A stretch of 33,937 nucleotides of DNA from Sphingomonas sp. (GTDB lineage Bacteria > Pseudomonadota > Alphaproteobacteria > Sphingomonadales > Sphingomonadaceae), in contig NZ_JANMWY010000210.1 in NCBI RefSeq assembly GCF_031380695.1, positions 1 through 33,937 on the forward strand. Direction: 5' to 3'. The translations under genes were made by a program, and so were the position numbers. The stretch's first letter is position 1, and each line of letters begins with the position of its first letter. Below, in pieces: positions 3,802-10,337 of this stretch. The notes beneath the pieces are model-generated. The model saw only the letters and a program-made list of their open reading frames with translations, had not been told where the DNA came from and did no database searches.

Positions 3802-3863
3802 GACACTTCCCGTGACGCACTGGCGGGACGCACCGGCGTCCGCCGCCCCGGTCCCTCAACGCA

Positions 3864-3895
3864 GCATCGCGCCCGGCGCGTGCCGGGCGCGATGC
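3864..3895. other. Perfect 14-bp GC-rich hairpin in the divergent intergenic region
   Basis: GCATCGCGCCCGGC-gcgt-GCCGGGCGCGATGC, with no flanking T-tract. Function unknown. Confidence 0.6.
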
Positions 3896-4083
3896 AAGCA
3901 TTGGTAACCGACCCAAGGCCCGCCGCGATGAGGCCCTCTGGACCTCGATGCTCAGGCGGCCATTGTTAACAGCATGTCAGCGCGCCGCAATGGTACGTTT
4001 CGGACTACCCCTGCGACAATGAAGGAGTTTGGTGCGGTCATTTGCACCTTGAGCGCGCGCCACCGCTCTGCTTGAACCCGATC

Positions 4084-7000
4084 GTGAGCCGAACCTGGTC
4101 CTTTGCCATCGATCGCGGTGGCACCTTTACCGACGTTGTCGCCCAAAGTTCCGATGGACTGCAGCGCGCTGCCAAGCTGCTGTCGGTCGGTCCCGGCATT
4201 TACGACGATGCCGCGCTCGAGGGGATCCGGCGGATCATCGCGGCCGACGGCGGCACCATCGGCGACGTGCGGATCGGGACCACCGTCGCCACCAACGCCC
4301 TGCTCGAGCGCAAGGGCGAGCGCACCGCGTTGCTGACGACGCGCGGCTTCGGCGATGCGCTGCGAATCGGCAACCAGGCGCGGCCCGACATTTTTGCGCG
4401 CCATATCGTCCTGCCGCCGATGTTGTACGATCGCGTGGTCGAGGTCGACGAGCGAATCGGTGCCGACGGGGCCGTCCTTGGTGCGCTGGACGAATCGGCG
4501 GCGACGGCCATGTTGGCCAAGCTTCGCGCTGACCTGTTCGACAGCATTGCCATCGCCCTGATGCATGGCTGGTACCACCCCGTGCACGAGCGCCGCCTGG
4601 CCGCGCTGGCGCAGCAGGCCGGCTTTGCCCAAGTCTCGGCCAGCCACGAGGTCGCGCCGTTGATCAAATTTGTTCCGCGCGCCGGCACTACAGTGGTCGA
4701 CGCCTATCTGTCGCCGATCCTGCGCCGCTATGTCGACCGTGTCGCCGACGGCCTGGGTGCCGACTGCGACCTGAGCTTCATCCAGTCCAACGGCGGCCTC
4801 ACCCACGCCCGCGCCTTTCGCGGCAAGGATGCCATCCTGTCGGGTCCGGCCGGTGGCGTGATCGGAATGGTCGCGGCCGGGAAGGCGCACGGCGAGGAGC
4901 GGCTGATCGGCTTCGACATGGGCGGCACCTCGACCGACGTATCGCATTATGCCGGCCGCCTGGAGTTGGCCGAGGAAAGCCTGGTCGCCGGCGTTTCGAT
5001 CCGCGCGCCGATGATGCAGGTTCATACCGTCGCCGCCGGCGGCGGATCGATCTGCCGGTTCGACGGGATGCGCTTTCGGGTCGGGCCGGAATCGGCGGGC
5101 GCGTGGCCGGGGCCGGCCTGCTATCGCAATGGCGGGCCGCTGACGGTCACCGACTGCAACCTGGTCACCGGCCGGATCGACCCTGCCCGGTTCCCTTCAC
5201 TCTTCGGCCCTGACGGCGACCAGCCGCTCGATCTCGAGGCGGCCCGCGAGCGGCTGGCGGAAATCGCGGGCACCCTCCCCCGATCGATGCCGATCGACGA
5301 GATCGCGCGCGGCTTTCTGGCTATCGCAGTCGACAATATGGCGGCCGCGATCCGCCGCATCTCGATTGCCCGCGGCCACGACGTCACCCGCTACACGCTG
5401 GTTTGCTTTGGGGGCGCTGGCGGACAGCTCGCCTGCGCGGTGGCCGATGCGCTGGGCATGGCGAAGATCCTGATCCATCCGCTGGCCGGGCTGCTCTCGG
5501 CTTATGGCATTGGCTTGGCCGACGTGAAGGCCATCCGCCAAACCAGCTGGCGCAAACCGCTGGCCGACCCTTTCGAACAGGCGTTCGCGCCGCTGACCGA
5601 CGCGGTCCGCGCAGAGGTAATGGCACAGGGCGTCGGCGCCGACCGGATCGAGATTGTGCAGCGTGTCCGCTTGCGGCTGGCCGACAGCGACAGCTCGATC
5701 GAGCTCGACTTGGCCGAGCCTGCAGCGATGAAGGCCGACTTCCACCGGCTTCACCGCACACGCTTCGGCTATGCCGACGAGACTGCGGACGTCGTCATCG
5801 AAGCGCTGGTCGCCGAAGCGATCGGCCGCACGCGCCGGGCCCAACCGACCATCGGCAATGCCGCTCGGGAGGAGCGCTTCGCTGGGCCGGAGATGGTCCA
5901 CGAAACGGGCTCGACCATCGTCATCGACGAGGACTGGAGAGGTGCTCGGCAAGGCGACGGCACCCTCATCCTGACTCGCTCCACCCCGCTCAGGCGCCAG
6001 CGCGCGGCGGGGACCGACGCCGATCCGGTACGGCTCGAGATATTCAACAATCTGTTCATGGCGATCGCCGAAGAAATGGGCGCCGCACTCCAGGCGACGG
6101 CGAGCTCGGTCAACATCAAGGAGCGGCTCGATTTTTCCTGCGCGCTGTTCGACCGGACCGGCGCGCTCATCGCCAACGCGCCGCACATCCCGGTCCACCT
6201 CGGCTCGATGGGCGAGAGCATCCGCACAATCCTCGCTGCGCGCGGCGACGGGCGCGACGGTCGCGGCATCCTTGCGGGCGACGCCTATCTGCTCAACGAT
6301 CCCTATCGCGGCGGCACCCACCTGCCCGACATTACGGTCATCGTGCCGGTCTTCTATGGCGCGAGCGAGGGTCCCGACGCCTTCGTCGCCGCGCGCGGAC
6401 ACCATGCCGACGTCGGCGGGATCGCGCCCGGATCGATGCCCCCCGACAGCCGCACCATCGACGACGAAGGCGTCCTCATCGACAATGAAGTGCTGGTCGA
6501 TCGGGGTCGCTTCCTTGAAGTTGAAACCCGCGCCCTGTTCGCGCGCGGCCCGCACCCGGCGCGGGATATCGACCGCAATATCGCCGATCTCAAGGCCCAG
6601 CTCGCGGCCTGCACGCGCGGCCTCGAGCGCCTCGTCGAGGTGGCCCGAGAAGAAGGCAAGGCGGTCGTCGACGCCTATATGGCGCATTGCATTGCCAATG
6701 CGGAGGAATCGGTCCGCCGTCTCATCGACCGGCTCGACGACGGTGAATTCGCGTACCCGATGGACAATGGTGCCGTCGTTCGAGTCACGATCCGGATCGA
6801 CCGCGCGGCGCGTGGCGCGACCTTCGATTTCAGCGGCACCAGCGCGCAGCTGCGCGACAATTTCAACGCGCCTTATTCGATCACGCGCGCCGCCGCGCTC
6901 TATGTCGTACGGACGCTGGTCGACGATGAGATCCCGATGAACGATGGCTGCCTGATCCCGATCACGCTGGTCGTTCCCGACGGTTCGATGCTTCGTCCCC

Positions 7001-7569
7001 ACCGGCCAGCCGCAGTGGTCGCCGGCAATGTCGAAACCAGTCAAGTCGTCACCGACGCACTGTTCGCCGCGACCGGCCAGCTCGCACCGAGCCAGGGCAC
7101 GATGAACAATTTCACCTTCGGCGATGCCAGCCACCAATATTACGAGACGATCTGCGGCGGCTCCGGCGCCGGCCCCGATCATGGCGGGACCGACGCGGTC
7201 CAGACCCACATGACCAACAGCCGGCTGACCGATCCCGAAATTCTCGAGACCCGCTTCCCGGTGCGGATCGAGCGATTTGCAATCAGGCGGGGATCGGGCG
7301 GAAAAGGTAGACACGACGGCGGAGATGGCGTGATCCGCGAGTTCATGTTCCTCGCGCCGATGCAGGCCAACATCCTGTCCAACCGCCGCGCAGTACCGCC
7401 GCGCGGGATTAGCGGAGGCGGGGATGCGCTGCCCGGCATCAACCGGGTCATCCGCCGCGACGGGACTGTCGAGGATTTGCCCGCCTGCGCCGCGGTTGAC
7501 ATGAAGCTAGGCGACCGGTTCGTGATCGAGACGCCGGGCGGCGGCGGCTATGGCAAGGAGGAGCAATGA
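4084..7569 (+). CDS. oplA: ATP-dependent 5-oxoprolinase, fused hydantoinase A/B (OplA/OPLAH type)
   Basis: Motifs [96 protein letters not shown] 4084 is preferred as start over TTG 4042 because the family N-terminus (W.F.IDRGG) begins there. Confidence 0.88.
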
Positions 7570-8237
7570 ACTACTGGCCGCTGATCGGCATCCTGATGGT
7601 TGTCGCCGGCTTCGCGCTGCGCCTGAACCCTATGCTGGTCGTAACCGCTTCCGCGCTGGTCACCGGCCTGATCGCGGGGATGGAACCCGTCACGGTCATT
7701 GCGACGTTCGGCAAGGCGTTCAACGACAATCGCGTCATTGCCATCGTCTGGATCGTCCTGCCGGTCATCGGCAGCCTCGAGCGATTTGGGCTGCAGCAGC
7801 GCGCGGCGGATCTGGTCCGGTCCTTCAAGGGAGCGACCCTGGCGCGGCTGCTGATCGCCTACCTCGCCTATCGCCAGGCGATTTCCGCCGTCGGTCTCCA
7901 TTCAACTGCAGGTCACGCGCAGACGGTTCGCCCCTTGGTTGCACCGATGGCGCTGGCCGCCGCCGAGCGCGAGCATGGCCTGCTTGATGACACCCAGGCC
8001 GATGCGGTCAATGCGATGGCGGCGGCGACCGATAATGTCGGCCTGTTCTTCGGCGAGGACATCTTCATCGCGATCGGCTCGATCGTGCTCATCCAGCAGA
8101 CGCTCGCGACCTACGGCTATGAGCTGACTCCGATCGAGCTGGCGGTCTGGGCGATACCGACCGCGCTGGCGGCATTCCTGGTCCATGCCGTCAGGATCCG
8201 CCTGTTCAGCGCGCGGCTGCGGCGGACGGCGCGGTGA
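7566..8237 (+). CDS. DUF969 family membrane protein (putative 5-oxoproline transporter subunit)
   Basis: Hydrophobic 223 aa with [24 protein letters not shown] and [18 protein letters not shown] motifs. ATGA overlap with the oplA stop. Confidence 0.85.
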
Positions 8238-9187
8238 TTACGCTCGACTGGATCTACATGCTCGCCGGCGCGATGTTCGCCGCCTTCGCGATCCTTGGCC
8301 TGAGCGACCGGTCGAACCCGAAGCGTCTCGGCAATAGCGCCTTCTGGGGCCTAATGGCGCTCAGTCTGCTGGCCGGCGACCGCATTGGCGATATCGCCAA
8401 TGGCGTGCTCGTGCTCGGCTTGGCCGGCCTGGGCGGGTTCAGACTGATCGGCCGGAGCCACCCTGCGACCACGTCGAGTAAGCAACGCGAGGAGTATTCG
8501 ATCCGCCACGGCAACCGGCTGTTCCTGCCCGCGCTGATCATCCCGGTGACGGCGCTCGCCGGCACGCTGGCCTACAATTACACGCCGCTCGGCCAAGCCG
8601 GCTGGATCGAGCCCCGGCGTGAGACCTATGTCTTCCTCGCCCTCGGCGTTCTGCTCGCCCTCGCCGTCATCTTTGCCTGGCTCCGCCCGCCAGCGCTCGC
8701 GCCGCTCAACGAAGGACGGCGATTGATCGATGCGATCGGCTGGGCCGCCGTCCTCCCGCAAATGCTCGCCGCCCTCGGAGTCCTGTTTGCCACAGCCGGC
8801 ATTGGCAGCATCATCGGCGGGCTGTTCGGGTCGATCATTCCCGACGGCAGTGTGCTCGTCGCGGTGATCGTCTTCGCCGTCGGCATGGCGTTGTTCACGA
8901 TGATCATGGGCAACGCGTTTGCGGCCTTTCCGGTCATGGCGGCGGCGATCGGCGTGCCCGTGCTGATCCAGCATGATCATGGCGATCCGGCGGTGATCGG
9001 CGCGGTTGGGATGCTGGCCGGATTTTGCGGCACGCTGATGACGCCCATGGCCGCCAACTTTAACTTGGTCCCGGCGGCTTTGCTTGAACTCAAGGATCAA
9101 TATGCGGTGGTCAAGGCGCAGGTCGCGACCGCGCTGCCGCTGCTTGCCTTTAACATCTTCGTCATCTGGCTGGCGGCCTTTCGATGA
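8234..9187 (+). CDS. DUF979 family membrane protein (putative 5-oxoproline transporter subunit)
   Basis: Multi-pass membrane protein with LPQMLAALG, GMALFTMIMGNAFAAFPVM and GFCGTLMTPMAANFNLVPAALLEL motifs. GTGA overlap with the upstream gene. Confidence 0.85.
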   Translation: MITLDWIYMLAGAMFAAFAILGLSDRSNPKRLGNSAFWGLMALSLLAGDRIGDIANGVLVLGLAGLGGFRLIGRSHPATTSSKQREEYSIRHGNRLFLPALIIPVTALAGTLAYNYTPLGQAGWIEPRRETYVFLALGVLLALAVIFAWLRPPALAPLNEGRRLIDAIGWAAVLPQMLAALGVLFATAGIGSIIGGLFGSIIPDGSVLVAVIVFAVGMALFTMIMGNAFAAFPVMAAAIGVPVLIQHDHGDPAVIGAVGMLAGFCGTLMTPMAANFNLVPAALLELKDQYAVVKAQVATALPLLAFNIFVIWLAAFR

Positions 9188-10194
9188 ACCTCGACCTACC
9201 CACGGCCGAACGGTTCGCGCGGATCGCGCTCGGCCATGTCGGGCGCGAATATCCGCACAAGCTCGACCATGTCCTGACGTCGGACGACGATGCGCGGACC
9301 CCGCGAGACCTCCACCCGATCTTCTTCGGCAGCTTCGACTGGCACAGCTGCGTCCATGGCTGGTGGACCTTGTTGACGCTGCGCCGGCTGTTCCCCGCCA
9401 TCGGCCCGGCGGCCGAGATTGCAGCGCTCGCCGCCGAGCGGTTCACCCCGGCCCATGCAGCGGTCGAGCTGGCCTACCTCGACCGGCCGGAGTCGGCGGG
9501 GTTCGAGCGGCCCTATGGCTGGGCGTGGCTTCTCGCGCTCCATCATGAAGCGGCCCGCCATGATGATCGCGACTGGGCGGATATCCTCCGGCCGCTGGCG
9601 ATCGCGTTCGCCGACCGGTTCACACCCTATCTCGCAAAGCTCAGCTATCCGATCACCGTCGGCACGCACTTCAACACCGCCTTCGCGCTGGTCCTCGCGC
9701 GCAGTTGGTCGGTGGCGCGCGACCCGGCCTTGACTCGGGCCATCGACGAATGGGCAAGGCGGGCCTTCGCGGACGAGCGCAACTATCGCGGGTGGGAGCC
9801 GGGCGGCGACGAATTTCTCTCACCTGCGCTAACCGCTGCGCTGCTGATGAGCCACGTCATGGACCGGGCGAGCTTCTCGGCCTGGTTCGATGCGTTTCTC
9901 CCGGAGGCGGCAATGGCGCGGTTCGAGCCGGTCGCCGTGTCCGATCGCAGCGACGGCAAGATCGCCCATCTGGACGGGCTCAACCTCAGTCGTGCATGGT
10001 GCCTGCGCGCGATCGCGACGGCGATTGCTTCATCCCCGAGGGCATCCGCGCTGGAATTGCGCGCGCGCCGTCATCTCGACGCTTCGCTGCCCCACGTCGC
10101 GGGCGACTATGCCGGCGAACACTGGCTTGCGACCTTCGCGCTCTTGGCACTGTACCCCCAACCACCCGGAGACGAGTGGACAGTTTGTCGTTAG
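9184..10194 (+). CDS. DUF2891 family protein
   Basis: Motifs EYPHK, LHPIFFGSFDWHSCVHG, FERPYGWAW, GTHFNTAF, DGKIAHLDGLNLSRAW, GDYAGEHWLATFA. ATGA overlap with the upstream gene. Confidence 0.82.
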   Translation: MNLDLPTAERFARIALGHVGREYPHKLDHVLTSDDDARTPRDLHPIFFGSFDWHSCVHGWWTLLTLRRLFPAIGPAAEIAALAAERFTPAHAAVELAYLDRPESAGFERPYGWAWLLALHHEAARHDDRDWADILRPLAIAFADRFTPYLAKLSYPITVGTHFNTAFALVLARSWSVARDPALTRAIDEWARRAFADERNYRGWEPGGDEFLSPALTAALLMSHVMDRASFSAWFDAFLPEAAMARFEPVAVSDRSDGKIAHLDGLNLSRAWCLRAIATAIASSPRASALELRARRHLDASLPHVAGDYAGEHWLATFALLALYPQPPGDEWTVCR

Positions 10195-10309: not shown

Positions 10310-10337
10310 GGCCCGTCAGCCGACACTGGGCCTTTTT
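10310..10337 (+). terminator. Probable intrinsic terminator between the convergent oplA operon and dps
   Basis: Bulged stem GGCCC-GTC-agcc-GAC-act-GGGCC followed by TTTTT, 6 nt from the dps stop. Confidence 0.45.

Follow-up and report, generated by a model that had tools for sequence, protein, structure and literature searches.

An oplA-DUF969-DUF979-DUF2891 operon of Sphingomonas sp.: a likely 5-oxoproline salvage system with a possible substitute for pyroglutamyl peptidase

A stretch of 33,937 nucleotides from Sphingomonas sp. (assembly GCF_031380695.1, contig NZ_JANMWY010000210.1), which is the entire contig and is referred to below as the window, carries at positions 4084-10194 of the forward strand four overlapping genes that raise the following question: what does a soluble protein of the DUF2891 family do behind an oxoprolinase-like enzyme and two membrane proteins? 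The first gene, oplA (4084-7569), begins with GTG and encodes, in an intact open reading frame (ORF), a protein of 1161 residues with the Pfam domains Hydant_A_N, Hydantoinase_A and Hydantoinase_B. It is followed by two adjacent genes for hydrophobic proteins, namely, DUF969 (7566-8237; 223 residues; PF06149, E 2.8e-83; a weak Na_H_antiport_2 match; grand average of hydropathicity 0.73) and DUF979 (8234-9187; 317 residues; PF06166, E 1.6e-115; about 10 hydrophobic segments), and by DUF2891 (9184-10194; 336 residues, no signal peptide; PF11199, E 6.9e-119). All four proteins score far above the Pfam cut-offs.

Pyroglutamate, or 5-oxoproline, arises spontaneously from glutamine and glutamate and caps the N-terminus of many peptides; the pyroglutamyl peptidase Pcp is a cysteine peptidase. 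The operon very likely serves 5-oxoproline salvage. Within it, DUF969 and DUF979 would pair into one importer, presumably ion-coupled, of 5-oxoproline and small conjugates, DUF2891 would release pyroglutamate from peptides or amides, replacing Pcp, and OplA would spend ATP to open the ring, yielding L-glutamate. To this explanation as a whole, pyroglutamate scavenging by four genes with DUF2891 as the Pcp substitute, we assign a probability of about one half. Taken alone, the deblocking step by a protein non-homologous to Pcp is a reasonable conjecture that falls short of an even bet, and DUF969/979 may take up conjugates as well as the free compound. The 5-oxoproline role of the three families, already put forward in the first-pass annotation, stands, although it was partly pre-empted: in a preliminary test, deletion of Campylobacter jejuni cj0552-4 (DUF969-979-2891) abolished growth on 5-oxoproline as nitrogen source, a phenotype that the available part of the report credits to the transporter (PMC12795558). 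What is new here is the exchange between DUF2891 and Pcp; in the literature as far as it was accessible, no proposed DUF2891 function and no such exchange were found, and Niehaus et al. (2017) and the CJ0554 structure paper may say more.

The evidence for the exchange lies in what follows DUF979. A neighbourhood survey of DUF969, DUF979 and DUF2891 against oplA and pxpABC, run on 45 DUF979 loci taken from 400 drawn Pseudomonadota genomes, upheld the linkage of the transporter pair to two non-homologous oxoprolinases claimed earlier from the window: within the fetched stretch, oplA was nearby at 8 loci, pxp genes at 17, both at none and neither at 20. The association with PxpABC and Pcp was borne out as well, Pcp being the gene after DUF979 at 22 loci; DUF2891 takes this position at 19, both genes at one and neither at three, and in each of these last genomes DUF2891 or Pcp is encoded elsewhere. 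A tighter link had been overlooked, namely, that DUF969/979 goes with Pcp or DUF2891 at 42 of the 45 loci versus 25 for an oxoprolinase. This closer tie suggests that DUF2891 acts in Pcp's role and that conjugates are also cargo.

At the genome level, a draw of 400 Pseudomonadota genomes contained DUF2891 in 43, DUF979 above the cut-off in 44 and 67 Pcp matches. Pcp was counted where canonical (33 matches, E <1e-60), 27 divergent and seven weak matches being excluded; as all 34 excluded genomes lack DUF979, the following distribution is unaffected by the cut-off. Among the 44 genomes with DUF979, 20 encode DUF2891 only, 21 Pcp only, three both and none neither, while either gene is found in 29 of the 356 genomes without DUF979. 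DUF2891 occurs in about one tenth of the sampled Pseudomonadota genomes, nearly all without Pcp. The divergent Pcp-like subfamily (families f12 and f19, E 1e-11 to 1e-34), found in 27 genomes, never accompanies DUF979.

Other phyla were sampled through plasmid records and unlabelled metagenome loci, and the hidden Markov models used for the locus and metagenome surveys were derived from the genome loci. In 80 metagenome loci picked on DUF979 alone (57 groups at 90% identity), the neighbour was Pcp in 36, DUF2891 in 34, both in none and neither in 10, four of which were cut short. On plasmids, Pcp follows DUF979 in Bacillus, Embleya, Enterococcus and Melissococcus, DUF2891 does so in Gemmatirosa and Niveispirillum, and both are present in one Streptomyces. 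In the genome studied here (2.2 Mb, 96.7% complete, 339 contigs), a whole-genome search found no pxpA, pxpB, pxpC or pcp, so that their absence, first noted for the window, holds outside it too. Homology of DUF2891 to Pcp was considered and rejected: PF01470 has no match in this genome, and DUF2891 is at most an analogue.

With regard to the importer, DUF979 retains in alignments the conserved motifs MGN.FAAF and TPMAANFN. The accessible portions of PMC11467057 place DUF979 in the ion-transporter (IT) clan as a single repeat and describe, for the C. difficile 969/979 pair, an AlphaFold heterodimer (interface predicted TM score ~0.9) with an IT-superfamily fold. By analogy, DUF969 and DUF979 are predicted to be the two halves of a split IT-superfamily transporter. 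Several loci show variations of the module. One genome with a DUF969-979-pcp arrangement (L075, G041) has no detected pxpA or OplA, which suggests that the module there takes up pyroglutamyl peptides for the sake of their remaining amino acids. At L064:7949-9100, a gene for a DctP solute-binding protein separates DUF979 from pcp, and an equally large gap is present in L203; in Bordetella, DctP6/7 bind 5-oxoproline, according to the part of PMC13274462 available. In L173, DUF969 and DUF979 are each in two pieces and DUF2891 is intact, and DUF2891 was also found on 35 Klebsiella plasmid records.

OplA is, judging from sequence similarity, in all likelihood a 5-oxoprolinase of the animal (OPLAH) type, as had been annotated from the window. 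It shares 41% identity over 1253 columns, and a phmmer score of 910.5 bits, with a beetle 5-oxoprolinase named by annotation, not by assay; by bit scores rather than by a tree, it is more distant from the N-methylhydantoinase 7hk5 (403 bits) and from caprolactamase subunits (241 and 106 bits). The single chain noted earlier is indeed present; it is not diagnostic, since PDB 7hk5 is itself a single-chain N-methylhydantoinase of 1288 residues. Identity as a caprolactamase or acetophenone carboxylase was rejected, the NCBIfam scores (326/1000, 138/1000 and 153/1500 bits) falling under every lactamase or carboxylase cut-off. Names were checked for 10 of 150 OplA matches and gave four named clusters, three including 5-oxoprolinase and one hydantoinase. 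The ATP motifs DRGGTFTD (10-17), DMGGT (278-282) and GAWPGP (339-344) match the family patterns DxGGTxTD, DxGGT and GxxPGP, which, together with the metal ligands, are defined in the available text of PMC8453981; these ATP motifs are common to the whole family. Candidate ligands of an Asp-His-Asp-His metal site in the B domain, placed by motif spacing, are D683, H746, D749 and H773/H774, also present in the animal protein. Near residue 595, the linker is shortened relative to the animal enzyme and Hydant_A_C has no match; several close relatives likewise have about 1160 residues.

The genomic distribution of the two oxoprolinases points the same way. Of 64 genomes with DUF979 or DUF2891, 62 were considered after exclusion of two with divergent DUF2891: pxpA is present in 39, an OplA-type gene in 26, both in four and neither in one, and pxpA/OplA swaps occur within families f24, f55 and f61. 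OplA and PxpA are complementary across genomes, and this complementarity, combined with the similarity to the animal enzyme, favours a 5-oxoprolinase over a hydantoinase or lactamase.

Two transporters and two oxoprolinases connect DUF2891 to 5-oxoproline, and the connection persists where DUF969/979 is missing. It stands directly behind oplA with no transporter at L058 and L059, and directly before an Nramp-like gene and pxpABC in four sampled genomes (L036, L043, L044 and L047). DPGN and MPH motifs are features of MntH, and these Nramp-like proteins have neither. B. subtilis and C. glutamicum require YcsG/PxpT to use 5-oxoproline (PMC13274462, in part), and the matching gene position suggests, by analogy, that the Nramp-like proteins are YcsG-like. 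Hydrophobic stretches resembling signal sequences lie ahead of 14 of 23 DUF2891 sequences without DUF979 and of none of 22 with it (a separate list made by eye differs in two rows). An exported form would act before 5-oxoproline is imported, which makes ATP dependence unlikely; its location outside the cytoplasm, ahead of an importer of free 5-oxoproline, fits an ATP-independent step that yields this compound.

We can tentatively propose that DUF2891 is a second, structurally unrelated pyroglutamyl peptidase family, built on an (alpha/alpha)6 barrel and equal to Pcp in frequency among Pseudomonadota, its cytoplasmic forms accompanying DUF969/979, which would import pyroglutamyl peptides and free 5-oxoproline, and its exported forms accompanying YcsG-type importers. 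Some orphan DUF2891 genes adjoin peptidases, namely, an M20 enzyme with a peptide ABC system at L055 and, overlapping by 4 bases, a P1-family peptidase at L172. In other surroundings, DUF2891 lies beside a gamma-glutamyl-hydrolase/glutamine-synthetase-like/aminotransferase cluster (L026) or beside asparaginase II (L030).

The structural model of DUF2891, computed from a 62-sequence alignment, is an (alpha/alpha)6 barrel with a predicted local distance difference test score (pLDDT) of 87, against 41 for the single-sequence version. It superposes on C. jejuni CJ0554 (PDB 8IEU) with Z 39.2 and a root-mean-square deviation of 2.2 over 321 residues; the two proteins are about 41% identical (PDB 8IEU/8IEV), and fold and invariant residues are kept. 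The CJ0554 structure paper reportedly describes a dimer with a cavity lined by histidines and assigns no function. All 46 of 46 diverse members have D52, W53, H54, S55, H58, E95, Y111, H262, H313 and W314, and 45 have H162 and E205; in the model, most of the invariant polar residues lie where the inner barrel helices begin.

A number of observations weigh against DUF2891 as a Pcp substitute. The genome-level survey covers one phylum. In a quick DUF969+979 tree, the DUF2891 label requires two changes and the Pcp label five, and independent pairs number two with locus labels and five with genome labels, never in the opposite direction, with median p of 1 and 0.5. The exclusion between Pcp and DUF2891 rests on few events, that is, two to five independent swaps, and is not significant; the naive Fisher p of 1e-9 is an overstatement on which we do not rely, and the phylogenetically corrected test is low-powered. 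Both genes share one operon at L027 and on the Streptomyces plasmid (L174), an arrangement more easily reconciled with different substrates than with the same one. Of the 14 exported forms, 13 belong to one clade, and they therefore count as one event. As the C. jejuni deletion took out all three genes, it leaves the roles of the single genes unassigned. Fold searches returned, after 8IEU, the GH88, MmpH, YihS and AGE-type barrels of sugar hydrolases and epimerases (Z 13-15.5, 8-13% identity), and no peptidase fold or other clear relative beyond 8IEU. Fusions, present in 56 long proteins, involve many unrelated domains and are not diagnostic. A link to glutaminyl cyclase found no support: strong PF05096 matches occur in 24 of 400 genomes and in only seven of the 43 with DUF2891; none was found in the genome studied here. 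The fusion partners themselves (P0289-P0344) are DUF979, Nramp, carboxylesterases, MlrC-type and other peptidases, Sua5 and sulfatases.

Alternatively, in an operon that still salvages 5-oxoproline, DUF2891 could act on the free ring, either as a D/L racemase that needs no cofactor and relies on a pair of histidines, like the AGE-family epimerases, or in an ATP-independent interconversion of glutamate and 5-oxoproline, as the periplasmic Alcaligenes faecalis enzyme does. AGE, cellobiose 2-epimerase and YihS share the barrel (Z 13-14.7, 8-12% identity), and in DUF2891 four histidines (H54, H58, H262 and H313) never vary and a fifth, H162, hardly does. Besides the exported DUF2891 subfamily, a 5-oxoprolinase that is Sec-exported and independent of ATP has been described (PMC13274462, in part), and operons with both pcp and DUF2891 are what such an activity predicts. 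We nevertheless consider this unlikely, because it leaves the mutual exclusion of DUF2891 and Pcp in one slot unexplained, and the A. faecalis family occurs in 10 of 984 genomes in the accessible part of PMC13274462 versus 43 of 400 for DUF2891 here.

Release of 5-oxoproline from a non-peptide conjugate, for instance a sugar adduct (an Amadori product) like fructosyl-pyroglutamate or, by cyclotransfer, a gamma-glutamyl amide, would also fill the 5-oxoproline-releasing slot. The nearest DUF2891 folds act on carbohydrates, the sole Atlas lead is a DUF2264/GH88 cluster with a weak score (0.76), and at L026 DUF2891 follows the cluster with a gamma-glutamyl-hydrolase mentioned above. However, sugar kinases and sugar transporters do not recur among the annotated neighbours (97 selected proteins), and fold likeness at about 12% identity is no proof of function; we regard this activity as rather improbable.

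That DUF2891 has no catalytic activity and serves the transporter or the oxoprolinase as a binding or accessory protein appears very improbable. DUF2891 is fused to DUF979 in two and to an Nramp domain in one of the 56 long proteins, and exported lipoprotein forms adjoin a transporter; yet about half of the DUF969/979 loci lack DUF2891, the protein is found alone as well as beside either of two unrelated transporters and either of two unrelated oxoprolinases, and its invariant His/Asp/Glu set looks catalytic. Least probable of all is an operon for another lactam or hydantoin whose 5-oxoproline link is historical: although hydantoinases and lactamases belong to the same family, among them the single-chain 7hk5 (PMC8453981, in part), and the accessible literature describes no assay of a bacterial enzyme of the OplA clade, OplA is far closer to the annotated 5-oxoprolinase, is complementary to PxpA in its distribution, and coexists in its genome with separate and distant hyuA/hyuB-like genes (26-36% identity), and the C. 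jejuni phenotype (PMC12795558, in part) speaks for 5-oxoproline.

The three consecutive 4-bp overlaps reported earlier were verified between intact ORFs, as ATGA (7566-7569, oplA-DUF969), GTGA (8234-8237, DUF969-DUF979) and ATGA (9184-9187, DUF979-DUF2891), all on the forward strand, and they suggest co-transcription and translational coupling of the four genes. In relatives, such overlaps occur at 30 of 60 oplA>969, 71 of 73 969>979 and 43 of 78 979>2891 junctions. GC content at third codon positions is 0.81-0.84 in the four ORFs, and the GTG start of oplA has the same position in close homologues. A promoter is expected in the region 3802-4083 that separates the operon from a divergent gene; a promoter scan of this region identified none. 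As for the probable terminator annotated downstream, the bulged hairpin (10310-10332) and five U are present (10310-10337, forward strand), about 115 nucleotides past the operon and just beyond the end of the convergent dps, but folding is at chance level (z -1.33, 24 of 200 shuffles folding equally well) and a consensus terminator scan did not call the element, which is at best a possible weak intrinsic terminator.

The operon is ordinary in this part of Alphaproteobacteria, as shown by the 80 closest DUF2891 loci (species genomes), 61 of which hold oplA, DUF969 and DUF979 as well; 12 have the transporter pair without oplA, and seven are too short for a decision. oplA is present at 50 of the 57 closest loci with at least 6.5 kb upstream, and pcp and pxp genes at none of the 80. 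Within the genus, DUF2891 was found in 8 of 18 genomes, and the full four-gene order in six of the eight fetched, one of these with frameshifts along its whole length; contig ends truncate the remaining two. Of the control genomes, that of Caulobacter vibrioides gave a DUF2891 match. The many frameshifts in the operon genes of L023 (G016) and L095 are most likely assembly errors. The four families also appear as adjacent rows of a table in PMC10040529, with the DUFs uncommented in the part available.

The divergent gene (3801-1, reverse strand), cut by the contig end, encodes at least 1267 residues with RTX calcium-binding and FG-GAP repeats, and its product is probably a secreted surface protein. 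Downstream (10344-33929), Pfam matches identify ordinary neighbours, namely, dps, a photolyase-related protein, an MHS-type MFS carrier, quinol oxidase subunits, a sensor kinase, an ABC-FtsX-CrtC lipocalin cluster, an SDR, a luciferase-like monooxygenase, a GST, a TonB receptor and AcrB.

Should DUF2891 prove to be the missing deblocking enzyme, a structurally solved family would acquire its first function, a fold otherwise associated mostly with sugar chemistry would be seen to support amide hydrolysis, and peptides would join the cargo of DUF969/979. With that role left aside, the operon differs modestly from a salvage module already known.

Among known systems, the pxpABC-DUF969-DUF979-pcp clusters of Niehaus et al. 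(2017), as relayed by the accessible parts of PMC11467057, PMC12795558 and PMC13274462, have the same DUF969-DUF979 order beside a 5-oxoprolinase, as in 17 of our 45 sampled loci; the present operon instead has the unrelated single-chain OplA as its oxoprolinase and DUF2891 in the pcp position. C. jejuni cj0552-cj0554 comprises the same three families in the same order, but the available text of PMC12795558 names no oxoprolinase for that operon and proposes no role for DUF2891. The pxpT/ycsG-pxpABC operons of C. glutamicum and B. subtilis likewise combine a transporter and an oxoprolinase for growth on 5-oxoproline, with an Nramp/APC transporter instead of a split IT fold and with the other oxoprolinase. 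OplA resembles eukaryotic OPLAH/Oxp1 in its fused A and B chain and ASKHA ATP motifs, and perhaps in the candidate metal tetrad, and differs in being about 120 residues shorter and in sitting in an uptake operon. Finally, Pcp (PF01470, C15) shares with DUF2891 the slot after DUF979, a near-exclusive distribution and the pathway context, whereas its sequence and fold are unrelated to those of DUF2891, an all-helical barrel without an invariant cysteine that also has exported forms.

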